A stretch of 24,000 nt of DNA from Kistimonas asteriae (GCF_018263925.1 NZ_JAEVHF010000010.1:157458-181457), one strand, 5' to 3'. Positions 7,752-17,272 are shown, numbered from the stretch's first letter. Made by a program: numbers and translations. Notes: generated by a model from the sequence alone, not told the origin.

Positions 7752-7989
7752 CGGGAATTCCTTCTTTTCCTTGGCAACACAGCGTCATGGCGATTCTATC
7801 AATGCTAACGCAATCTACTAATAACATTTCCGCATAACTTAATAGCACCCGGTTAGGGTTTGCATGGCGGTAAGCTCAGGGGTAGAGTGTGCGCTGCTCC
7901 GCTGTCATTATCAGCATCAATAAACAGCCGAACTGCATTAGAAGAACCGTATAACACCGTAAAATAAACAGAAAAAATCAGGAGTCGTT

Positions 7990-8610
7990 GTGGAAATAGC
8001 CTGCCTGGATCTGGAAGGGGTACTGGTTCCCGAAATCTGGATCAAATTCGCCGAGCAAACCGGCATTGATGAACTCAAAGCCACCACCCGAGATATTCCC
8101 GATTATGATGTCCTGATGAAACAGCGACTTAAATTGCTGGATCAGCATGGTCTGGGATTGCGGGAGATTCAGGCTGTCATCGCCGAGATGGCGCCACTGC
8201 CCGGTGCCCGTGACTTTATCGACTGGTTACGGGAACGTTTCCAGGTTGTCATTCTCTCTGATACGTTTTATGAATTCGCCCAGCCTCTCATGCGTCAACT
8301 GGGATTCCCGACGTTGCTCTGCCACCGTCTCGAAGTTGATGATAAGGGCAAAGTCACTGACTATAGCCTGCGTCAGAAAGATCCCAAGCGGATGTCCGTC
8401 AAAGCGTTTCATAGCCTGAAATACCGGGTGATCGCCGCCGGTGATTCCTACAACGACACTACCATGTTGGCTGAAGCGGATGCCGGCATCCTGTTCCATG
8501 CACCGGACAATGTCATCGAAGAGTTTCCGCAGTTTCCGGCAGTACATACCTTTGATGACCTGAAAATGGCATTCTGTCAGGCCAGTGTGCGAGACATTCC
8601 ATTGCAGTAA
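7990..8610 (+). CDS. thrH: Phosphoserine phosphatase / homoserine phosphotransferase ThrH (HAD superfamily)
   Basis: 206 aa. GTG start with an AGGAG SD at 7980-7984. MEIACLDLEGVLVPEIWI, TTRDIPDYDVLMKQRL, RFQVVILSDTFYEF, LGFPTLLCH and AAGDSYNDTTML are nearly identical to P. aeruginosa ThrH as remembered. Confidence 0.9.
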   Translation: MEIACLDLEGVLVPEIWIKFAEQTGIDELKATTRDIPDYDVLMKQRLKLLDQHGLGLREIQAVIAEMAPLPGARDFIDWLRERFQVVILSDTFYEFAQPLMRQLGFPTLLCHRLEVDDKGKVTDYSLRQKDPKRMSVKAFHSLKYRVIAAGDSYNDTTMLAEADAGILFHAPDNVIEEFPQFPAVHTFDDLKMAFCQASVRDIPLQ

Positions 8611-8652
8611 ACAACAAGATACTGAAGATATTGTACTGACGGACGGGTAGGG

Positions 8653-10041
8653 CTAGAGCGCTACCCGTTCTGCTTCGAGGCTTTCCAGAACATTCATCAG
8701 GTTTCTGACCTTGGTGATGGATTCCTGATACTCCATCTCGCAATCAGAATCCGCGACGATGCCGCCGCCGCCCCAGCAGTGGATCTGCTGACCATCGGCA
8801 ACCAGTGTGCGAATAGCAATATTGGTATCCATCCGGCCATGGCTGCTGATATAGCCGATAGCACCGCAATACACGGAGCGGGGAACCGGCTCCAGCTCCC
8901 GAATGATTTCCATCGCACGAATTTTAGGTGCGCCGGTGATGGAACCTCCGGGGAAGGCATCCCGTAGCAACATCAGGTTGTCATGTCCCTCGGCCAGTTG
9001 GCCGGTCACCGTGCTGACGAGGTGATGCACATTGGCGTAACTTTCCAGACCAAACAATACGGGGACTTTAATAGAGCCAGGTTTGCAGTTACGCCCCAGG
9101 TCATTACGCAACAGATCAACAATCATCAGGTTTTCAGCCCGATCCTTTTCGCTGGTCAGGAGTTCGGCGGCGGACGCGATATCTTCGTCCATATCCCGTC
9201 CGCGAGGGCGAGTGCCTTTGATAGGACGGGTTTCAACGTCACCATTATCAGAACGCAACAGTCGTTCAGGTGAATGGCTGAGCACCTTGAGTTCATCGAA
9301 ATCCAGAAACGCGGCGAAAGGGGTAGGGCTGGCAGCTCTCAGTGCCTGATAGGCTGACCATGGGTCACCCTGATAGTGGGCGGAAAACCGTTGTGTCAGG
9401 TTGACCTGGTAGCAGTCACCGGCGGCAATCCAGTCCTTGATATGATGGAAAGCATTCTGGTACTCGGACGGTGACATACTGGCCGAAAAGGGCGTATTCA
9501 AATGGAACGCTGATGGAAACACCGTTGCTGGTTTATGCAGTCGCTGTTCAATGCGATGGCGCTTTTCCTCTGGCATATCCGGATGGGCCACCAGCCAGGT
9601 TCTGCCGGTGTGATGGTCCACTACAACCGCCCAGAGATAAAGCCCCACCAGCATGGACGGGTGTGATGAGTTGCGCGGTGTAATGCGTCCCGGCTCCAGG
9701 CTTTCATTCAGTTCATAGCCCCAGTAACCGGCCAGACCGCCAGTAAACGGCATTTGTTGGCTATCAACCGGAGAGGGGAGTGCTACATGCAGGGTTTCAA
9801 ACGGTGCAGTCGTCAATGGTTGCCAGTTGTCGCTTGTTGACGGTTTACACCAGGTGACACCTGCTTTGTGGCGGTAGAGATTTTCCGGTGCGGCAGTCAG
9901 GATGTCGTACCGGTAACGGTAATCGCCGGTAGAGCGGGCGACACTGTCGAGCATCAACGCATTGCCCAGCGGCCGAAGACGCTCGAACCACTGGACGGAA
10001 TCCGTCAGGTGCGGCAGTTCGGTGATGGAAAGGTGTTTCAT
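8653..10041 (-). CDS. pabB: Aminodeoxychorismate synthase component I
   Basis: 462 aa chorismate-utilising enzyme: SPERLL, ETRPIKGTRPRG, SEKDRAENLMIVDL(L)RND, FPGGSITGAPK and YCGAIGY. Its size and its position next to thrH fit PabB rather than TrpE. Confidence 0.85.
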   Translation of the reverse strand: MKHLSITELPHLTDSVQWFERLRPLGNALMLDSVARSTGDYRYRYDILTAAPENLYRHKAGVTWCKPSTSDNWQPLTTAPFETLHVALPSPVDSQQMPFTGGLAGYWGYELNESLEPGRITPRNSSHPSMLVGLYLWAVVVDHHTGRTWLVAHPDMPEEKRHRIEQRLHKPATVFPSAFHLNTPFSASMSPSEYQNAFHHIKDWIAAGDCYQVNLTQRFSAHYQGDPWSAYQALRAASPTPFAAFLDFDELKVLSHSPERLLRSDNGDVETRPIKGTRPRGRDMDEDIASAAELLTSEKDRAENLMIVDLLRNDLGRNCKPGSIKVPVLFGLESYANVHHLVSTVTGQLAEGHDNLMLLRDAFPGGSITGAPKIRAMEIIRELEPVPRSVYCGAIGYISSHGRMDTNIAIRTLVADGQQIHCWGGGGIVADSDCEMEYQESITKVRNLMNVLESLEAERVAL

Positions 10042-10200
10042 TGACGTGTTTCACTGCGGTTTGGCCGGCATTGTATACCGGATGCCAGGCGTTCAAAAGG
10101 AAGCAATGCGCATTCTCACTGACATACCGCAATGCATTGCCCAAACCAAACGACACTATCTGACCAGTGAATGGAGCTCGTCTGAAAAATAGACCTGACA

Positions 10201-10224
10201 GTCAACAACGTATTCTTTGTTGAC
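10201..10224. promoter_or_regulatory. Perfect 8-bp inverted repeat overlapping a consensus TTGACA hexamer
   Basis: GTCAACAA (10201-10208), 8-nt spacer, TTGTTGAC (10217-10224). TTGACA at 10220-10225 has no good -10 hexamer at 17 +/- 1 bp. Function not established. Confidence 0.25.
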
Positions 10225-10429
10225 ACTTTATTTACAAAGCTTGCACTTATGTCCCAAAGCAGTTATAAAATTCCGCATACCTTGAACAGGTTGAGCCACA
10301 GCGCACAATAATAAAACTGTTGTCCGGGATGTTCGAAATTGCCGGCAAAACAGACAGAACAATAAAAGCAGCATAATAAGAACAATAAAGCGGAAACCTC
10401 ACAATGTTCAGAGACCCATCCTCAGACCG

Positions 10430-10699
10430 ACACTCCGTCGACGCCCGGAACACCGAAGCCCTGGTCTGCGCTGGCAATGCCTGCCTCGCCGTCAGTCTGG
10501 CCGTTGTGTTCCTCTGGACGCTCTGGTAACCGCGGATTCCGCAGGAATCCAATCGGCTTCGTGCGTCCGCTCGTTGTTAAGCATTCGCGGAATGGACGTG
10601 GAAGGCGGTCCGGGTCGCTCCCGGTCCGACATGCAATGTACACTGCATTGCAGTACAGGGAAGGCTAACGCCTGAACATGCAACTGGAGACTAATAATA
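10430..10699 (+). promoter_or_regulatory. GC-rich, hairpin-dense candidate 5' leader of the five-gene cluster
   Basis: Non-coding in all frames by eye. Perfect hairpins: GGATTCC-gca-GGAATCC (10534-10550), CCGGG-tcgct-CCCGG (10610-10624) and ACTGCA-t-TGCAGT (10642-10654). Nine GGA triplets between 10447 and 10690, the last one in the SD (GGAG 10686-10689). Confidence 0.3.
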
Positions 10700-12037
10700 A
10701 TGAAAGGCCTTAAGAAACTGCCTCTGGCAATTGCCATCTCCTCAGTCATGGCTGCCACAGCCCAGGCTGAACTGAAAGCGCTGGAAGACGAAGCCATGTC
10801 GGAAATGACGGGGCAGTCTGGTATTACCATTGAAATGGAAATGCAGGCTGAAGTCGGTGCTGTTACGTATACCGATGAAGGCTCTATCCGTCTTGAAGGT
10901 ATTACTCTTGATAACAATGGTGGCGCACTGAACCAGACCATCAATATTGATATGCTTGAAAAGTCTGACTTGGCTGCTGGTCCTGGCGCTGCAACCAAGG
11001 CTGCTGGCGATATCATCAAGGTTGGCATCAGCAATATGGAAATGGATGTTGAAGTGGATGCGATTCGTACAGGTGATGCCAGCGCAGCCAGCTTGGGTCA
11101 GCTGAATATTGAAGACATTGCTATGAATGGCACAGACATGTATGTCTACGCCCTCGATGGCAAAAAAGGTATCGGTGTTGATGCAATTATCAACCAGTCA
11201 ATCGGGCGCGTAAGCTTCACCGATATTGATCCTAATGCTGCAAATGGTGCTGAAGATGGCGGTACCGTAGCACTCAACGATATCAAAATATCCACTTTGG
11301 ATATGACAGGTACTGAGGTTACTGTTATTGATGGCGCTGAAAATCCTTACGGCACTTTCGATGCTGTGAAAGTAACCATGCCTGGTATCAATAATGGATC
11401 TATTTCTGTTGGTGGTATTCAGGTTGGTAGCGCGACTGATGATACTTATGACCAGTTCAATCAGACTATCGGTGCTGTAGAGCTGAATGGTCTCAATCTT
11501 GCCGGTACTGATATGTACGTTTATGCACCAGATACTGGCAGCGGTATCCGTGTGACCCAGCAAATGAACGTTACCTTGGGTGAAGTCACTTATGTTGCTG
11601 GCGTTCTGGATGCAGATACTGCTGATAAAACCGTTACTGCTTTAACAGCGAAGAAAGCTCAGGTAGATGGACTGATAGGCACGCTTGATCCTGTCGCTGA
11701 TGCCGCTCAAATTGCTCAATTGACTGCAGCATCTAACGATCTGGGTAACAAGATTGCCGTTGCTGATAAGGTTTACTATAAGAGCGGTGAGCTTGGTGGA
11801 ACAGGAAGAACTGGTGATGGCGTAGGTTCTGTGACATTGTCAAATGTCAGCCTGACTTCAGATATCAGCACTATCGCTATTGATGTTGATGCAAGTAATC
11901 ACCTTGTAATTGACGCCCCAATGACTAACGCCAATATCACAGTCGGTGCCATCAATGTTGGTGACGGCAATCTGGGTGGTTTGGCCATCACTGGTCTTAA
12001 TATGACAACCAATAGTATCTCTGTATATGCACATTAA
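10700..12037 (+). CDS. Secreted Gly/Thr/Asp/Asn-rich three-repeat protein, first gene of a fil-like cluster (FilA/DUF6160-like by recollection)
   Basis: 445 aa. Sec signal KKLPLAIAISSVMAATAQA|EL. Then an acidic amphipathic stretch ELKALEDEAMSEMTGQ. No Cys. Three internal repeats, each ending in ...GTDMYVYA or ...ISVYAH(end). SD GGAG lies 10 nt upstream. Confidence 0.85.
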   Translation: MKGLKKLPLAIAISSVMAATAQAELKALEDEAMSEMTGQSGITIEMEMQAEVGAVTYTDEGSIRLEGITLDNNGGALNQTINIDMLEKSDLAAGPGAATKAAGDIIKVGISNMEMDVEVDAIRTGDASAASLGQLNIEDIAMNGTDMYVYALDGKKGIGVDAIINQSIGRVSFTDIDPNAANGAEDGGTVALNDIKISTLDMTGTEVTVIDGAENPYGTFDAVKVTMPGINNGSISVGGIQVGSATDDTYDQFNQTIGAVELNGLNLAGTDMYVYAPDTGSGIRVTQQMNVTLGEVTYVAGVLDADTADKTVTALTAKKAQVDGLIGTLDPVADAAQIAQLTAASNDLGNKIAVADKVYYKSGELGGTGRTGDGVGSVTLSNVSLTSDISTIAIDVDASNHLVIDAPMTNANITVGAINVGDGNLGGLAITGLNMTTNSISVYAH

Positions 12038-12057
12038 GTTCGTATGACGCGATGAAT

Positions 12058-12092
12058 AAAAGGCCGACCGGTTTACCGGCCGGCCTTTTTTA
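12058..12092 (+). terminator. Strong rho-independent terminator/attenuator directly after gene 1 of the cluster
   Basis: AGGCCGACCGG (12061-12071), loop TTTA, CCGGCCGGCCT (12076-12086): 10 G-C pairs and one mismatch, then T6 (12086-12091). Starts 21 nt after the stop codon. Confidence 0.85.
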
Positions 12093-12114
12093 CTTAAACT
12101 GCACGAAAGTACGA

Positions 12115-12135
12115 AAAAATAAAAACAACAAAAAA
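12115..12135 (+). promoter_or_regulatory. (AAN)7 tract upstream of the C39 peptidase start codon
   Basis: AAA AAT AAA AAC AAC AAA AAA, ending 11 nt before ATG 12147. No GGAG-type SD present. Confidence 0.4.
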
Positions 12136-12146
12136 GACTGACTTCC

Positions 12147-12950
12147 ATGATTGAGATTCTGCTGGGCAGCCTGCTTGCCGTTTTCGGCGTCAATACCGCG
12201 TTTGAGGTCAAGCCAAAGGACGAGGGAACGGTCTACTTTGAACAGCAGACCGCCAGCATCCCGGTGACGGATCAGACCGCCGTTGAACCACTCTCTAAGT
12301 TTAAATACAAAAACATCATCCGGCAGACCTATGACTACAGTTGTGGGTCTGCCGCACTTACAACATTGCTGGATTACTATCTGGGACGAAACCTGACTGA
12401 ACGCCAGGTCATGGAAGGGCTGCTCAAATTCGGTGAAGCCGACAAGATTGTCGCCCGTCGCGGCTTCTCTCTGCTGGATATGAAACGTTTCACCCGTGCC
12501 ATCGGTCACAAGAGCGGTGGATTCCGCGCCAGTATGGATGACCTGGCCGATCTGGATCACCCGGCTATCGTGCCCATCGAATACGCGGGCTTTAAGCATT
12601 TTGTCGTGGTGCGGGAAGTGTATAACGGCCATGTCTATGTGGCCGATCCGGCAGTAGGGAATATCAGTTTTACCACTGAGCGGTTCAAGGAGGTCTGGGA
12701 TCGCAATGTGCTGTTTATCGTATTCCCGAACGGCCATGCGCCGCTGCCGAACCTGGAATTGCGTAACGAAGATATGCGGGTCGTCGATGAAAGCACGATT
12801 AACTACCTGGCTTTCCAGGAGTTCCCGCAGTTCAACAACCCGATGGAAAACCGCCTGAAAGATGCCGCCGCCATTCGTCGGCTGGAAAATGCTACAAGCA
12901 GCGGTGAGGTTGGCGGAAGTGTCGGTGGTATGTCTTATAAAAGGCAATAA
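12147..12950 (+). CDS. Stand-alone exported C39-family cysteine peptidase (bacteriocin-processing-type domain)
   Basis: 267 aa. N-terminal hydrophobic segment ILLGSLLAVFGV. QTYDYSCGSAALTTLLDYYLG (Gln60, Cys66) and KHFVVVREVYNGHVYVADP (His151, Asp167, 16-residue spacing) align with the ComA peptidase domain motifs QVDQMDCGVASLAMVFGYYG and LHYYVV...IADP as remembered. Confidence 0.9.
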   Translation: MIEILLGSLLAVFGVNTAFEVKPKDEGTVYFEQQTASIPVTDQTAVEPLSKFKYKNIIRQTYDYSCGSAALTTLLDYYLGRNLTERQVMEGLLKFGEADKIVARRGFSLLDMKRFTRAIGHKSGGFRASMDDLADLDHPAIVPIEYAGFKHFVVVREVYNGHVYVADPAVGNISFTTERFKEVWDRNVLFIVFPNGHAPLPNLELRNEDMRVVDESTINYLAFQEFPQFNNPMENRLKDAAAIRRLENATSSGEVGGSVGGMSYKRQ

Positions 12951-13049
12951 CATCGGATAAAAAAAGCCGGTAGAATGCCGTGAACTGGATCACAGCCGAG
13001 TGATACACCCACAACGTATCGCCGGCAAAGAACGAATAAGAAACATATA

Positions 13050-13067
13050 AAAAATAACAATAACAAG
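13050..13067 (+). promoter_or_regulatory. (AAN)6 tract upstream of the first beta-barrel gene
   Basis: AAA AAT AAC AAT AAC AAG, ending 11 nt before ATG 13079. The only purine run (AGGA) abuts the ATG, too close to serve as an SD. Confidence 0.4.
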
Positions 13068-13078
13068 AGCGTATCAGG

Positions 13079-14167
13079 ATGAAGTTTCGCATGTCTGCGT
13101 TAACCATGGGGATTGCCCTTGGCGGCCTGGCCTGGACCGGGTACGCTGCCGCCGCCAGCTCAACAGACGCCCGCAGCGCCCTGGCCAAACAGGACGGTGA
13201 CGCCGACCAGAGTAAGCAGCTTGAGGAAGTCTTCCAGGCGGCTGAGAAAAGTTACTCGCTGCTTAAATCCGGTGATACCCGGCTGACTTATTCCTTCAAT
13301 TATTCCAATACCCGTGACGCCAGGATTGATTTTGCCAATGCCACCGGCACCAATGGCACCGAGGTCGTCACCAACTTTGTCCGGAATACCACCGACCATA
13401 CCTTCACCAATACCTTCAGTTTTGATTACGGAATCTGGGACAACCTGACGTTCTCGGTGCGGATTCCGCTGGTTGCCAAGTATTCCGAGAATAAGTCTGT
13501 GGCGGCCGGCAGTTATATCAGTAAAGAAAAGACAGTGTATGGGGTTGGTGACGTTGGTTTAAGCCTCCGCTGGCAGCCATTTGAAGTTCGTCCCGGCCGG
13601 CCATCTCTGACACTGAACAGTTCCTTTAACCTGAAAACCGGCGAGAGTCCCTACGAGATCAATCCCGACAAGGATCTTTCCACGGGTAGCGGTTATTTCT
13701 CTCTCGGTTTCGGGGCGAGCCTTTCTCATGTTCTGGATCCGGTCGTGCTGTTTGGTTCTGTCGGTTACAACATCAACTTCGAAGAAACCGGCCTGAACCA
13801 GTACCAGGGGGATCCCACCAACCGGAACCTCAACCCGAATCAGGACACCCTGACGCTGTCATCCGTTAATCCCGGTGACAGTTACTCCATGAATATGGGG
13901 TTTGCCTATTCGCTCTCTTATGACGTTTCCATGAGTGCGTCCTATCAGATGTCCTATAGCCGGGAGAGTGTGTTCACGTTCAAGGATGGCCGGAGCGTGG
14001 ATTCGCCCTCCAGCACCTCGGGGATTGTCAATATGTCCCTGGGGCTGCGGATGTCGCCTACCTATATCGTCAATATCAATGCCGGTTTCGGCCTGACCGA
14101 GGATTCCCCGGATATCCTGCTGGGCTTTTCGCTGCCGCTCGACCTGGAGGGTCTGAAGGCGGAATAG
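13079..14167 (+). CDS. Putative outer-membrane beta-barrel protein (MetA-pathway/transporter-type channel family by recollection)
   Basis: 362 aa. Signal peptide LTMGIALGGLAWTGYAAAA|SS. GVGDVGLSLRW motif. Long runs of alternating polar/hydrophobic residues (YSMNMGFAYSLSYDVSMSASYQMSYS). No cytoplasmic-type motifs. The family call is from memory only. Confidence 0.72.
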   Translation: MKFRMSALTMGIALGGLAWTGYAAAASSTDARSALAKQDGDADQSKQLEEVFQAAEKSYSLLKSGDTRLTYSFNYSNTRDARIDFANATGTNGTEVVTNFVRNTTDHTFTNTFSFDYGIWDNLTFSVRIPLVAKYSENKSVAAGSYISKEKTVYGVGDVGLSLRWQPFEVRPGRPSLTLNSSFNLKTGESPYEINPDKDLSTGSGYFSLGFGASLSHVLDPVVLFGSVGYNINFEETGLNQYQGDPTNRNLNPNQDTLTLSSVNPGDSYSMNMGFAYSLSYDVSMSASYQMSYSRESVFTFKDGRSVDSPSSTSGIVNMSLGLRMSPTYIVNINAGFGLTEDSPDILLGFSLPLDLEGLKAE

Positions 14168-14238
14168 TTGTTCTGGCTGTTGAATGCCCCGGTTGTCCCG
14201 GGCTGCAAGACAAGCGAACGCTGGCTGACAGCTGATCT

Positions 14239-14258
14239 AATAACAAGAACAAGAAGAA
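14239..14258 (+). promoter_or_regulatory. (AAN)6 tract abutting the FadL-like gene start codon
   Basis: AAT AAC AAG AAC AAG AAG AA immediately followed by ATG 14259. No GGAG-type SD. Confidence 0.4.
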
Positions 14259-15893
14259 ATGCGCAGTATGATCAGGACTTTTTCAGGCTATGACAGACCC
14301 GGGTGGTGGGCGACGACACTAGTACTTTCGTACTTTTTGGTGTCGCCACTTCAGGCGCAGATGGCCCAGAACCTTACCATCGGCAATCCAAAAGCCATGG
14401 CTATGGCCAATGCGGTCACGGCGGACTTTGTCGGTTTGGACAATGTGCATTACAACCCGGCGGGACTGGTTGACCTGAAAGGTCGGCAGTTTGAAACCAA
14501 GGTCATTGCCGCCTACATGGATATCCGCGCCGAGTTTGAGCCCGGGGAAAATTACGACTTCTTTGGTTTTGATGCGGATGATGATCCCGTCTCCTACACC
14601 AAAAGTCAGACAGCGACGCCTGCCATGTATATTCCGGGTGTCGGACTGACCTCGGTACCGGCATTGATTGCACCCCTTAATGGTGTCTCCTTTAATCCCC
14701 CCGGCTCAAAGTTCACGTTTGCCAACAATCTTTATGCCCCCATGGCGCTCGGTTTCAGCCGGGATGAAGGGGATGATCCTGCGGCATTTCAAGGACAAAA
14801 GGTGGCGCTGCAGCGGATCACTTATCTGTCACCCTCCATTGGCTACAAAGTGAATGATCAGTTGGATGTGGGTCTGTCCGTTGGGTTCTCCCATCAGGCG
14901 CTGGCGATGGAACAGAAATTCCGTAGTCCGAATGATCTTTTGGCGTTGAATGCTAACCCGGCGATTCAGACATTGTTCTGTGATACGCCGGGCATCGATA
15001 TTTTGACGGCGATTTTCCTGGATATCTGTCAGGGGGATGCGAACCCTTTTGCGAATATGGCCGATATGTCACTCGAAATGACAGAAACCCTGTCTCCCAC
15101 TTATAACCTCGGCCTGCGTTGGAAGCCCTATGACTGGCTGCGCTTTGGTCTCGTATATCAGAGTGAAGCGAAGATGAATCTCAAGGGTGACTACTCCTTT
15201 GAGTATTCCGATGATTTTTTTGAATTCATGAAAGGCTTTGCCGGTGCCTATAACCCTTCGATCTTCGGGGCAGCGTTGATTGGTCCGATCAGTGCCAAGC
15301 AGAAGGAGGAGGGTATTGCTTCCATGAAGCTCACCTATCCGCAGCATATCTCGGGTGGCGTGAGTGTGGATCTGACGCCCAGGCTGACCATGAACTTTGA
15401 TTTGAAGTGGACCGATTATGATGTCTGGGAAAACTTCGTGATTGAATTTGACCGGCAGGTGATGGCCATGCAGTTTGCCACTATCCTGGCGCCGGCCAAT
15501 GCGCAACCCAACAGGATTGTCATGCCGCGGGGGTATGAGAGTAAGTGGAGCTGGGCGGTCGGATTTGAGTACGATGTCAGCAACCGTCTCAGCCTGCGTT
15601 GGGGCTATGAAAACCGGCCATCCTCCATCCCGGAAGACAAAGCCGATATCATGGCGCCCCTGGGGGACGCCCATATCATCGGTTTAGGCTTTGGCTACCA
15701 GTGGGATAAGGAATCTGTCGTGGATGTCGGTTTCCAGTATTTCTGGTCCAAGCAGGAAATTCCCGCAGGCACCAGCTGTAACGTCAATTGTGACGGCATC
15801 ACTGATCTGGTTTACAACCCCTATGCCGGAATGGATCTGGAGACCAGCATTAATGCCTACATCTTCTCACTCTCTTATCGGACCCGTTTCTGA
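14259..15893 (+). CDS. Outer-membrane protein transport protein, FadL/OMPP1/TodX family
   Basis: 544 aa. Signal WWATTLVLSYFLVSPLQAQ. Family NPAGL motif (VHYNPAGLVDL) early in the mature part. Beta-strand periodicity throughout. C-terminal aromatic beta-signal ...IFSLSYRTRF. Confidence 0.87.
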   Translation: MRSMIRTFSGYDRPGWWATTLVLSYFLVSPLQAQMAQNLTIGNPKAMAMANAVTADFVGLDNVHYNPAGLVDLKGRQFETKVIAAYMDIRAEFEPGENYDFFGFDADDDPVSYTKSQTATPAMYIPGVGLTSVPALIAPLNGVSFNPPGSKFTFANNLYAPMALGFSRDEGDDPAAFQGQKVALQRITYLSPSIGYKVNDQLDVGLSVGFSHQALAMEQKFRSPNDLLALNANPAIQTLFCDTPGIDILTAIFLDICQGDANPFANMADMSLEMTETLSPTYNLGLRWKPYDWLRFGLVYQSEAKMNLKGDYSFEYSDDFFEFMKGFAGAYNPSIFGAALIGPISAKQKEEGIASMKLTYPQHISGGVSVDLTPRLTMNFDLKWTDYDVWENFVIEFDRQVMAMQFATILAPANAQPNRIVMPRGYESKWSWAVGFEYDVSNRLSLRWGYENRPSSIPEDKADIMAPLGDAHIIGLGFGYQWDKESVVDVGFQYFWSKQEIPAGTSCNVNCDGITDLVYNPYAGMDLETSINAYIFSLSYRTRF

Positions 15894-15964
15894 CCCTCTA
15901 CGGTGTCGATTGGCTTGAAAGCGGGGCGGTAAGCAGGGAAGATGAGATCCGGGAGGGCGGCAGT

Positions 15965-17191
15965 ATGACAATAATAACCCGGTGCTGTTCTGGCAGTTTA
16001 TTGATGTTGGGTGCAATGGCAGGCCTTGTAGCGTTGCCCGCTGGCGCATCGGAACGTTATTTCACGTATATCGACGAGACCGGTAAGATTCGCAATCTGT
16101 TTCTGGATGACGATTTCAAGGAACAGCAGGACGAAGTCCGTCATCGCATCAGCCTGTCGAGCTATATCGATCCTTACGATAACCCCAGCTCTATTGCCTA
16201 TCAGAATTTTTCATCGTCATCTGAAAAGAAGCGTCGCTATTTCACCTGGGTGGATGCTGACGGTACGGTGCAGAGCAGTTTCTATTCAGACCAGTCCGAT
16301 ATCAAACCACGAGACCAGTATGTGCTCGGTTCCGGCGAACGGGCCAGCAGTTACGTGGATGCAGATGTGCTCGAAGGGCGTGGTTTTGTCCGTGGTGAAA
16401 ATGGCCAGCCGTATTACACCTGGACCGACGCAGAAGGGCGCATCCAGAATACGGCTATCACAACGGAGCAGCGGGCACAGGCCTTCAAACGCCCGAGGCT
16501 TCCGGGGATCGGTAGCCGCAATCACGATTTTACCGATGGCAATGAATTGCTGCTGAAAGCGATGCCGGCACCAGTAAGTCAGAACATTGCGTTAAGCCCG
16601 GAACTGGCGGGTATTCTCGATGCAAATCGAGAGCAGCGACGTCAACCCCAGCGGGCTCGGGATGCGGAGTTGGCCCAGGCGTTTTCCGACGGTTGCTGTA
16701 TCCAGATGGACGTGCGCAATTTTGAAAAGCCGGGGCTTGATCAGGCGAAGTATGATGAATTTAATCGCTTCACGCCGTTGTTCGATTTTCCCACCGGGCT
16801 CAGCTATTACAGCGGTTATGTTATCCCGGATGATAAACCCAGCTCAGCCGTTCGCGTTCGCAGCTTTTCCAATCAGGATGTGATGTATCCCAGCCTCTTA
16901 TTTCTGGATGCCGCCCGGCGTCCGACGCGCCTTGTGACCGATGCCATCTACCGCCTGAACCCGGAAACCTGGCACAGCTATGCCTATATCGAAGGCATCG
17001 TTGCGCTTAAGCCCTGGCTGGGTGAACGTTATGTTGTTGTCATGACGACCGAGGAAGCATTAGAGCAGCAAACCCTAGACAACAAACCCTTTGCCCGGCC
17101 GCTGGATATGAAATCAGTTGCAGTGGAGGAGGGGATGGTGGTTCGAGAGCATGCCTCCACGGGTTCCTTTGAGGTGACGTTCCTGAAATAA
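15965..17191 (+). CDS. Periplasmic protein with three YFTWxDxxG (DUF4124-like) repeats and a MalM-like C-terminal domain (FilE-like by recollection)
   Basis: 408 aa. Signal LLMLGAMAGLVALPAGAS|E. Repeats YFTYIDETGKIRN (aa 32-44), YFTWVDADGTVQS (92-104) and YYTWTDAEGRIQN (150-162). C-terminal MYPSLLFLDAARRPT ... GERYVVVMTTEEALEQQT parallels E. coli MalM VFAPNVLILDQNMTP ... QQKLYVLVFTTEKDLQQTT as remembered. Good SD GGAGG 8 nt upstream. Confidence 0.8.
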   Translation: MTIITRCCSGSLLMLGAMAGLVALPAGASERYFTYIDETGKIRNLFLDDDFKEQQDEVRHRISLSSYIDPYDNPSSIAYQNFSSSSEKKRRYFTWVDADGTVQSSFYSDQSDIKPRDQYVLGSGERASSYVDADVLEGRGFVRGENGQPYYTWTDAEGRIQNTAITTEQRAQAFKRPRLPGIGSRNHDFTDGNELLLKAMPAPVSQNIALSPELAGILDANREQRRQPQRARDAELAQAFSDGCCIQMDVRNFEKPGLDQAKYDEFNRFTPLFDFPTGLSYYSGYVIPDDKPSSAVRVRSFSNQDVMYPSLLFLDAARRPTRLVTDAIYRLNPETWHSYAYIEGIVALKPWLGERYVVVMTTEEALEQQTLDNKPFARPLDMKSVAVEEGMVVREHASTGSFEVTFLK

Positions 17192-17196
17192 GTCAG

Positions 17197-17210
17197 CATT
17201 GTTGACAATG
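17197..17210. promoter_or_regulatory. Candidate GntR-type operator 1 (CATTGT-TG-ACAATG)
   Basis: Perfect 6-bp arms with the GT..AC core typical of GntR-family operators, 84 nt upstream of the GntR gene ATG. Overlaps a TTGACA hexamer (17202-17207). Confidence 0.4.
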
Positions 17211-17260
17211 TGATCCTTGACGCTCGGTTTATACGTATATAAGCTCAGCGTCACTGATTA

Positions 17261-17272
17261 ATTGTCGACAAT
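17261..17272. promoter_or_regulatory. Candidate GntR-type operator 2 (ATTGTCGACAAT)
   Basis: Perfect 12-bp palindrome sharing the core ATTGT-NN-ACAAT with site 1. Ends 21 nt upstream of ATG 17294. Centres of the two sites are 63 bp apart. Confidence 0.4.

Follow-up and report, generated by a model that had tools for sequence, protein, structure and literature searches.

Five genes on the plus strand of the chromosome of Kistimonas asteriae (Endozoicomonadaceae), spanning positions 10700–17191 of the 24-kb stretch of DNA analyzed here (the window), form a conserved cluster whose protein sequences show an evolutionary relationship to the Fap functional-amyloid secretion pathway. Gene 1 (10700–12037) encodes a protein of 445 amino acids (aa) of the DUF6160/FilA family, a predicted secreted modular subunit that is acidic and free of cysteine; gene 2 (12147–12950) encodes a 267-aa C39 cysteine peptidase of the FilB/FapD type, presumably periplasmic; gene 3 (13079–14167) encodes a FilC-like protein of 362 aa, an outer-membrane channel of the FapF family by homology; gene 4 (14259–15893) encodes a FilD-like protein of 544 aa, a 14-stranded-type barrel of the FadL/OmpP1/TodX family; and gene 5 (15965–17191) encodes a MalM/DUF4124 protein of 408 aa, for which a periplasmic accessory role is proposed. 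The original prediction, made from the DNA alone, had described five same-strand open reading frames (ORFs), all of which were found where it had placed them, and it had anticipated matches to DUF6160, Peptidase_C39, Toluene_X/FadL and MalM, each of which was obtained above threshold, together with DUF4124, which matched weakly. Throughout, Pfam matches were judged by the curated gathering thresholds and NCBIfam matches by the cut-offs of the models.

The relationship to Fap is drawn from genes 2 and 3. Gene 3 has no Pfam match above thresholds, the expected match of the Phenol_MetA_deg type included, and its exact sequence is without a database record; many of its homologues carry a precomputed PF13557 (Phenol_MetA_deg) label. 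Its sequence matches those of the FapF crystal structures 5o65, 5o67 and 5o68 with an E-value of 8e-12 over aa 113–353 (phmmer), and a gene 3-type profile built from 11 orthologues matches the same structures with an E-value of 3e-19. Among the NCBIfam models, FilC scores best (320 bits; cut-off 630), while the FapF model aligns its positions 100–417 of 420 to aa 41–353 of gene 3 at 63 bits (E 2e-17), a score which, set against a cut-off of 700, marks gene 3 as a homologue of FapF and not as an orthologue. The GVGDVGLSLRW motif to which the original prediction had drawn attention on this barrel lies at aa 154–165 (YGVGDVGLSLRW). Unfolded Fap subunits are exported through FapF, a 12-stranded channel that is trimeric and plugged (PMC5557850). 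Where the helical plug of FapF (E98/F102 region) would sit, the residues K46, L48, E49, V51, F52, Q53, A54 and E56 of gene 3 are strongly conserved, in a region outside the HMMER local alignments; FapF K401 aligns to Ser351 of gene 3.

Gene 2 matches Pfam Peptidase_C39 with 73 bits (threshold 22), and its best and second-best NCBIfam matches are FilB (291 bits; cut-off 475) and FapD (119 bits; cut-off 330). It also matches the peptidase domain of PCAT1 (7n87/4ry2), to whose catalytic positions Q60, C66, H151 and D167 align; these four residues are invariant in 75 distinct orthologues, which bears out the intact Gln/Cys/His/Asp set read from the DNA. FapD itself is periplasmic, and its active-site Cys is needed for secretion, while its substrate is unknown, FapE or FapF having been suggested (PMC5557850). 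In the functional-amyloid pathway of Pseudomonas, FapF and FapD are the two components specific to secretion. The FapF match of gene 3 and the FapD match of gene 2 together tie the cluster to a known fibre-secretion machinery; the view that it contains no known secretion or fibre machinery therefore does not hold, and the label "orphan" was wrong. A hydrophobic export segment had been assigned to each of the five proteins, and all five do carry one; by eye, those of genes 1, 3, 4 and 5 resemble usual Sec signal peptides of the AxA type, and that of gene 2 is atypical. In gene 2 and its orthologues, aa 1–18 (12147–12200) follow the pattern M-I-E-I-L-[LV]-G-S-L-[IL]-G-x-F-G-[FV]-T-x-A. Normal signal peptides are conserved to a far lesser degree, and the segment may be a cleaved signal, a membrane anchor or an element with a further role. 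A 287-aa ORF on the minus strand (12090–12953) lies antisense to all of gene 2 and was treated as a shadow ORF.

In NCBI, the gene 1 product has a match of 100% identity in the entry "DUF6160 family protein [Kistimonas asteriae]". It matches Pfam DUF6160 with 91 bits (threshold 27) over aa 1–81 only, and the NCBIfam FilA model (NF050077) with 47.8 bits against a cut-off of 220 over aa 6–66 only, a range that comprises the signal peptide, a leader and the first strand; besides signal peptide and first strand, the leader region is the sole part that gene 1 has in common with the Acinetobacter FilA model. The product has neither Cys nor Trp and contains internal repeats, in agreement with its earlier description as a Cys-free repeat protein. 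Its Sec signal peptide, assigned by inspection, occupies aa 1–23 (10700–10768, plus strand; MKGLKKLPLAIAISSVMAATAQA, cut before E) and combines a basic n-region with a hydrophobic core and an AQA site. It is followed by an acidic leader of 16 aa (aa 24–39; 10769–10816, plus strand; ELKALEDEAMSEMTGQ), which is proposed to be a propeptide or recognition signal for the C39 peptidase.

A logo of 77 distinct family N-termini was aligned on the tripeptide [TS]-G-Q, which is present in 112 of 113 sequences, and reads A-Q-A up to the signal peptidase site and [ED]-L-[KQ]-A-[ML]-D-D-x-x-[LM]-x-x-[VMI]-T-G-Q-[DA/S]-G-I-[ST]-I beyond it. Counted from the bond after Gln, A-Q-A is conserved at 97/81/97% at positions −19/−18/−17, and the hydrophobic residues of the leader are Leu (87%) at −15, Met (70%) or Leu (27%) at −12, Leu (75%) or Met (25%) at −7, and Val (60%), Met (22%) or Ile (9%) at −4; the Gly at −2 is fixed by the alignment anchor. 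The complete spacing pattern recurs in 123 of 145 further representatives of clusters at 50% identity, the DUF6160 family as a whole comprising about 1,270 such clusters. The leader is found at the N-terminus alone; internal modules 2 and 3 do not have it, which indicates that it is not part of the structural unit. We infer that a C39 cut would fall within the stretch ELKALEDEAMSEMTGQSGITIEM, at or adjoining G-Q-[S/D/A]-G; that the leader is cleaved by the peptidase of gene 2 is a tentative assignment, for which our confidence falls slightly short of an even balance.

Behind the leader, gene 1 consists of three tandem copies of a module of about 110 aa, of which the Pseudomonas proteins (about 145 aa) hold one, with about 109 aa after the leader. 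Module 1 (aa 40–152; 10817–11155) starts with SGITIEM, ends with GTDMYVYAL and can be aligned over its full length with the Pseudomonas proteins of one module; module 2 (aa 153–277; 11156–11530) starts with DGKKGIGV and ends with GTDMYVYAP; and module 3 (aa 278–445; 11531–12034), like the others on the plus strand, carries a helical-hairpin insert (aa 305–356) and the C-terminal tail ...GLNMTTNSISVYAH. Within the protein, aa 130–152 match aa 255–277, and aa 145–169 match aa 270–294. Modules 2 and 3 start at a G-I-x-V strand, that is, where the mature protein would begin, and the ends of modules 1 and 2 (...GTDMYVYA[LP]) resemble the C-terminal tail, so that the junctions read as a tail followed by a mature head, which is the best evidence here for a head-to-tail order of units. 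No tandem repeats were found in the DNA of gene 1, and the three modules are thus read as old duplications.

The tail is a family-wide feature (...S-[IL]-G-x-[LV]-x-[IV]-x-[DG]-[LI]-N-[ML]-x-G-[ST]-x-[VI]-x-[VI]-[YW]-[GA]-H), and the commonest endings among the 145 representatives are YGH (96), SAH (19), FGH (4) and YAH (3). Homologues of gene 1 are alike at these two ends only, the middle being hypervariable; subunit length ranges from 309 to 512 aa among close relatives, and module number is 1 in Pseudomonas and 3 here. Toward K. scapharcae, the subunit has 88% aa identity against 99% for the channel, and the subunit diverges faster than the channel. An AF2 model of the gene 1 product is mostly beta with a pLDDT of 64, the helices of module 3 reaching about 90, and autocorrelation of the profile of the module of about 109 aa gave a weak resemblance between its first and last strand regions.

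Gene 4 matches Pfam Toluene_X/FadL with 258 bits (threshold 29.7) over model positions 12–421 of 421, and its C-terminus reads ...SYRTRF, so that the FadL-type barrel ending in YRTRF described earlier is a full-length member of this family. Its best NCBIfam match is FilD (495 bits; cut-off 970), and a local match to the PorV/PorQ family covers aa 428–501 at 28 bits against a cut-off of 90. In gene 5, the MalM-like C-terminus that had been noticed corresponds to Pfam MalM at 71 bits (threshold 26; aa 278–405), which is also the sole NCBIfam match for E-values up to 10, and DUF4124 is matched weakly at 27 bits. Three DUF4124-like hairpin repeats, R-Y-[FL]-T-[WY]-[VI]-D-x-x-G-x-[VI]-x-N, lie at aa 31–46, 91–107 and 149–163, and an invariant Cys-Cys pair (aa 244–245) precedes the MalM domain. 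The gene 5 product, like that of gene 1, agrees in full (100% identity) with an NCBI protein of K. asteriae. A search of PDB sequences with the gene 5 profile found no relative, and the AF2 model of this protein was rejected as unusable (pLDDT 42).

The original prediction depended on these families co-occurring in a conserved order outside the source genome, and they do so. A FilC profile scan of one genome per species yielded 308 relatives; the 80 best of these were taken on to a comparison of loci by tblastn of the five window proteins against the fetched sequences. Gene order and strand of all five are identical in 80/80 species-representative loci wherever the contig is long enough; genes 2–4 were found in 82/82 loci and genes 1 and 5 in 80/82, the misses including truncated contigs, and pabB lies divergently upstream in 76/82. 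The linkage of the five genes is obligate. The hosts are Kistimonas, Parendozoicomonas, about 70 species of Pseudomonas, Atopomonas, Serpens and Zestomonas, and independent gene calls with Pfam labels agree on the gene set in P. aeruginosa, Parendozoicomonas and one metagenomic relative. The downstream neighbours vary, with prp genes in Kistimonas and ATP-grasp/transglutaminase-like genes in P. aeruginosa.

The P. aeruginosa equivalent is what we take to be PA1761–PA1765, the numbers having been assigned partly by counting genes from pabB to ppsA and partly from the PAO1 map. No paper was found on the function of these genes, which occur only in expression and proteome tables. PA1762, named as a C39-domain protein, was found in the extracellular proteome of P. 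aeruginosa responding to acyl-homoserine lactone analogues (PMC10613653), and a gene-chip table of strain TBCF10839 versus its rubB mutant gives 13.5 for PA1761 and 17.9 for PA1762 (PMC12431658); both entries are hints as to when the cluster is expressed. PA1764, the orthologue of gene 4, is listed as a FadL homologue (PMC6137939).

Within this fixed arrangement, the subunit gene is the changeable element. In a metagenome contig (L087), the whole locus is conserved from MFS, 5'-nucleotidase, TauE, LysR, HAD and pabB through prpD and ppsR, and the gene 1 product (309 aa; gene at 7755–8684) has just 38% identity to Kistimonas gene 1 over 62% of the length, so that the subunit has been replaced or remodelled while its surroundings stayed. 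Kistimonas has a single subunit gene. In Parendozoicomonas haliclonae (L002, 4830–6281) and also in L007, a second, divergent DUF6160 paralogue immediately follows the first, with a degenerate leader (...EAREAVAQ, then ASIEVD) and a C-terminus reading ...NTMRITGKE instead of ...IYAH; such a paralogue might serve as a minor, tip or terminating subunit. DUF6160 genes with a complete leader and a ...YGH tail also occur as orphans in two Marinobacter loci (L083 and L085) and two Bermanella-like loci (L084 and L086), the latter two with three tandem DUF6160 genes each; L085 retains the HAD–pabB neighbourhood and hence the syntenic pabB locus. Upstream of the orphan genes, L085 and L086 each contain an ORF of about 180 aa without annotation, the two sharing 25% identity (pairwise E 1e-4), and L083 contains a 604-aa "choice-of-anchor D" protein.

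The spacer between genes 1 and 2 contains an intrinsic-terminator-like hairpin (12058–12091, plus strand; terminator scan), AAAAGGCCGACCGG-TTTA-CCGGCCGGCC-TTTTTT, with a perfect stem and a T-run, 20 nt past the stop of gene 1. Its fold has a z-score of −3.96, and 0/200 shuffles fold as well. Of 73 distinct gene 1–gene 2 spacers, 66 contain a stem of 8 bp or more without interruption (median 13), against 1/54, 1/6 and 0/12 for the remaining spacers of the cluster, and the hairpins of other genomes occupy the same place with a different sequence. The hairpin is probably an attenuator or a stabilizer of the mRNA 3' end that sets a high ratio of subunit to machinery, a layout usual for a major structural subunit that is made in excess over its machinery. 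Two A-rich tracts, AAAAAATAAAAACAACAA (12114–12131) and AAAAAATAACAATAACAA (13049–13066), are alike and lie just 5' of the start codons of gene 2 and gene 3; a function as translation-enhancing leaders is conceivable, and so is coincidence.

Upstream of the cluster, the window holds ahpC-like and greB-like genes, DAHP synthase, MFS, 5'-nucleotidase, TauE, LysR, HAD and pabB, and downstream of it a GntR/FCD regulator, prpBCD and ppsR, so that the flanks are housekeeping genes. In line with the original prediction, ABC transporter/MFP, usher, secretin, ATPase, TpsB and CsgG genes are absent from the entire 24 kb. PADLOC defence families gave zero matches and Rfam none across the whole window, a repeat scan of the cluster returned chance-level matches only, and GC content is ordinary over the locus except in gene 1, where it dips to 0.46. 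The locus is an old one that has been passed on vertically; it occupies a conserved core chromosomal position and is not an island.

Between pabB, on the minus strand, and gene 1 lies a noncoding spacer of 658 nt (10042–10699, plus strand), presumably the promoter and 5' leader region. Its nucleotide identity to two other Kistimonas genomes, 92%, is higher than that of pabB (86%), gene 1 (85%), gene 5 (82%) and gntR (86%) in the same comparison. Its fold is not better than that of shuffled sequence (z −1.3), and the spacer has no convincing small ORF and no Rfam match; a promoter scan gave a weak sigma-70-like match at 10673–10701. In Pseudomonas, two MalT/LuxR-type STAND regulators stand between pabB and the cluster, where Kistimonas has this spacer. 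At the other end, a 75-nt imperfect palindrome (17198–17272; fold z −5.2), with the outer half-sites TTGTTGACAA and TTGTCGACAA, lies between the stop of gene 5 and the GntR/FCD regulator gene and probably acts as a terminator, as the operator for the prp regulator, or in both ways. The window has 10 occurrences of its TTGTYGACAA motif against 3.3 expected; with 3 of 100 shuffles reaching 10, this is no clear enrichment.

One of the closest known systems is the fil operon of Acinetobacter baumannii, filA–F (A1S_0690–0695), four of whose products are represented by the NCBIfam models NF050077–NF050080 under the name "putative pilus system". Its content includes a 430-aa FilE and a 641-aa outer-membrane FilF (PMC4751259 Table S3); its products are raised in pellicle cells, and the locus has been called a "putative type III pilus" (PMC3203104, PMC5376624). 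FilF was tested as a vaccine antigen with no mechanism given (PMC3203104, PMC5376624, PMC4751259), and in keeping with the earlier statement that none is known for this gene set, no mechanism was found in the literature. The first four genes occur in the same order (subunit, C39 peptidase, FilC barrel and FadL-type FilD), the sizes are comparable (289/279/398/556/430 aa for filA–E versus 445/267/362/544/408 aa here) and the subunits share the N-terminal leader region; the best NCBIfam matches along the DNA are, in order, the FilA N-terminus, FilB, FilC and FilD, as the term "fil-like" had implied, and the last three extend over almost the entire length. However, the scores for FilA, FilB, FilC and FilD (48/220, 291/475, 320/630 and 495/970) all fall under the cut-offs, Acinetobacter FilC is about 48 residues longer at its N-terminus, and there is no filF, the GntR regulator coming after gene 5 instead; a FilF-sized gene after gene 5 is absent from the Pseudomonas and Parendozoicomonas loci too. 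Given the scores below cut-off and the missing FilF, the cluster is a relative of the Acinetobacter fil operon and not a member of it.

In the way it works, the cluster most resembles Fap, with which it shares a C39 peptidase and a FapF-family barrel in one operon with an exported beta-rich subunit, as well as a Sec-dependent, ATP-independent route, which is described for Fap (PMC5557850) and proposed here. The differences are considerable: none of the five proteins matches a model of FapA, FapB, FapC or FapE; the subunit belongs to DUF6160, unlike the Q/N-rich repeat protein of the FapC type; gene 3 is without the coiled coil and linker of FapF; an additional conserved FadL-type barrel and a MalM/DUF4124 protein are present; and the scores for FapD (119 versus 330) and FapF (63 versus 700) are far below the equivalog cut-offs. 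P. aeruginosa presumably possesses a separate fap operon besides this cluster. No paper was found that joins FapF with any Fil protein. From these comparisons, the cluster is not itself a Fap system, and its most fitting place is within a Fil-type family, itself a sister of Fap, of which it forms the Pseudomonas/Endozoicomonadaceae branch.

Three further systems offer partial parallels. Double-glycine leaders cut by C39 peptidases have hydrophobic residues spaced at −15/−12/−7/−4. The leader of gene 1 is likewise amphipathic, with hydrophobic residues at these positions and Gly at −2, and gene 2 shares the peptidase fold and catalytic residues of ComA, PCAT1 and LahT; in contrast to these, gene 2 is a free-standing exported protein, not a cytoplasmic domain of an ABC exporter, and the leader sits behind a Sec signal peptide, has Gln at −1 and is not matched by leader hidden Markov models (HMMs). 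Curli (CsgA/CsgG) and other nucleation-type surface fibres are similar in concept, since their Sec-exported, unfolded, Cys-poor, beta-rich subunit has a variable number of stackable units, is encoded by a gene expressed in excess and leaves through an outer-membrane channel that needs no ATP, but there is no relation in sequence or fold, and a CsgG-like lipoprotein channel, the CsgB nucleator and CsgE/F are all lacking here. PorV of type IX secretion (T9SS) provides an analogy for gene 4 as a FadL-family barrel that acts in protein secretion and not in lipid uptake; the match, however, covers few strands and is far under the cut-off, and no other T9SS parts are present.

On this basis, it is likely that the cluster is a Fap-related export system for the gene 1 product. 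The fuller reading, namely a five-gene Fil-type system, related to Fap, that exports a modular beta-rich protein to the surface without ATP, is the one that we favor with some reserve, and as to polymerization of that protein, the case stands evenly balanced. The Sec-dependent, ATP-independent pathway with periplasmic processing put forward in the original prediction is reasonable and matches the related Fap system (PMC5557850). Each step beyond homology in the following scheme is one that we infer. All five proteins would cross the inner membrane by Sec, as their N-termini suggest. Signal peptidase would cut gene 1 at AQA, before E, leaving a subunit that keeps the 16-residue acidic amphipathic leader ending in T-G-Q; the periplasmic peptidase of gene 2 would then recognize this leader and remove it at or adjoining G-Q-[S/D/A]-G, and its removal may license export or unmask the first strand of the subunit. 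By homology, the unfolded subunit would cross the outer membrane through the FapF-like barrel of gene 3. Once outside, the modules would fold and assemble in head-to-tail order, with the G-I-T-I strand at the N-terminus of one unit placed against the C-terminal ...V-Y-A-H strand of the unit before it, and this folding would supply the driving force, as in curli and Fap. The Kistimonas protein would be a natural fusion of three subunits, and the hairpin after gene 1 would make subunit mRNA exceed machinery mRNA. More speculatively, genes 4 and 5 would be obligate accessories, gene 4 most likely as an outer-membrane anchor or receiver by analogy with PorV, and gene 5 as a periplasmic chaperone or adaptor that replaces FapA and the missing coiled coil of FapF.

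The most specific form of this scheme, which we offer as a proposal and consider doubtful as a whole, holds that the DUF6160/FilA leader is the recognition and cleavage signal of a periplasmic C39 class (FilB and, by extension, FapD), and that this second cut gates export through a FapF-type channel without a coiled coil and unmasks a strand for the head-to-tail assembly of a new surface fibre in P. aeruginosa, other Pseudomonas, Acinetobacter and marine symbionts.

Several observations weigh against this interpretation. The literature contains no experiment on the gene set and no fibre tied to FilA, and the roles given to genes 4 and 5, taken as they are from position and family only, are speculative. 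The N-terminal periplasmic trimeric coiled coil and the linker of FapF are essential for its secretion function (PMC5557850, PMC6173795), and gene 3 is without this coiled coil, with only about 15 residues between the predicted end of its signal peptide and the start of the alignment. The N-terminus of gene 2 (MIEILLGSLLAVFGVNTA) has no basic n-region, so that its periplasmic location is not certain. HMMs of double-glycine leaders from Pfam and NCBIfam do not match the leader segment for E-values up to 10, and residue −1 of the proposed site is Gln, as opposed to Gly, Ala or Ser in known C39 substrates. The orphan DUF6160 genes of Marinobacter and Bermanella-like genomes carry leader and tail with no C39, FilC, FadL or MalM gene within 9–10 kb, which implies that the leader may be read by something else, or that the machinery lies elsewhere in the genome. 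Finally, the model of the gene 1 product is of moderate confidence and resembles no solved fibre subunit (in a Foldseek search of the PDB, nothing fell below E 0.3, and the non-significant top rows were mostly barrels and pore formers; a sequence search of the PDB gave no match), and profile autocorrelation detected no short rung periodicity in the module of about 109 aa.

The alternative that survives best keeps the export system and changes the target of the peptidase from the subunit to the machinery, where the channel, the FadL-type barrel and the MalM-like protein are possible substrates; the N-terminal segment of the subunit would then stay uncleaved and serve for targeting, for chaperone binding or as an assembly strand. 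The Gln at −1, the lack of a leader HMM match and the retention of the motif in orphan DUF6160 genes without a neighbouring peptidase are all consistent with it, as is the proposal that the target of FapD, itself unknown, is FapE or FapF (PMC5557850). Nevertheless, the leader shows a 3-5-3 spacing of hydrophobic residues followed by x-G exactly as double-glycine leaders do, according to the established consensus; it is absent from the internal modules and so stands outside the structural unit; and gene 3 does not have the linker region that is suspected as the FapD site in FapF. We consider a machinery target unlikely.

A different account accepts the FapF-like channel and denies the polymer, so that the gene 1 product would act as a monomer at the surface or in the matrix, for example as an adhesin or coat component, with its termini serving as secretion or anchoring signals. 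This agrees with the absence of a demonstrated fibre, with an AF2 model that is moderate and unlike pilins or amyloid solenoids, with the lack of short repeat periodicity and with the different termini of the second Parendozoicomonas paralogue. A monomer fits poorly, however, with a module number that varies from 1 to 3 or more and with junctions that mimic tail-to-head contacts, both typical of stackable subunits; furthermore, the high-expression layout with its hairpin after the gene suits a major-subunit gene, and the homologous Fap system exports subunits that polymerize (PMC5557850). We regard this account as quite unlikely.

An uptake system for hydrophobic compounds, made up of the FadL-type barrel and a barrel of the "MetA-pathway/phenol degradation" type with the peptidase and the DUF6160 protein as unrelated neighbours, might be read from the full-length FadL/TodX membership of gene 4 and the listing of PA1764 among FadL homologues (PMC6137939), from the precomputed PF13557 label of many gene 3 homologues and from the propionate-catabolism genes prpBCD downstream in Kistimonas. 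Yet the five genes stay together and in order in 80/80 genomes with differing downstream neighbours, gene 3 lacks a Pfam match but significantly matches the FapF structures, and a peptidase together with what appears to be a highly expressed exported subunit would be left unexplained, all of which makes uptake very improbable. That gene 1 encodes a bacteriocin-like toxin of large size, with a leader and matured by the C39 peptidase, is scarcely credible. A C39 peptidase with a leader-like motif is a hallmark of class II bacteriocin and microcin maturation, but the window has no ABC transporter, no immunity gene and no match to an anti-phage or defence/toxin family, the leader sits behind a Sec signal peptide, and the locus is a conserved core chromosomal position and not an island.

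The feature is real, strongly conserved and uncharacterized, and the Fap-related export reading provides the gene set with a testable mechanism through its link to Fap. The set is shared by many Pseudomonas, including P. aeruginosa PAO1, and by animal-associated Endozoicomonadaceae, with a related form in A. baumannii; for P. aeruginosa as well as for animal symbionts, it is a candidate for a new surface structure. The substrate of FapD has been open since 2017, and the FilA leader offers a short, conserved candidate recognition sequence for periplasmic C39 peptidases. A FapF-type channel that works without a coiled coil and is partnered by a FadL-type barrel and a MalM-like protein would also offer a possible role to the long-unexplained MalM family. 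The hypervariable subunit is relevant to colonization, biofilm formation and antigen design and, if it polymerizes, would represent a further class of Gram-negative surface fibre.

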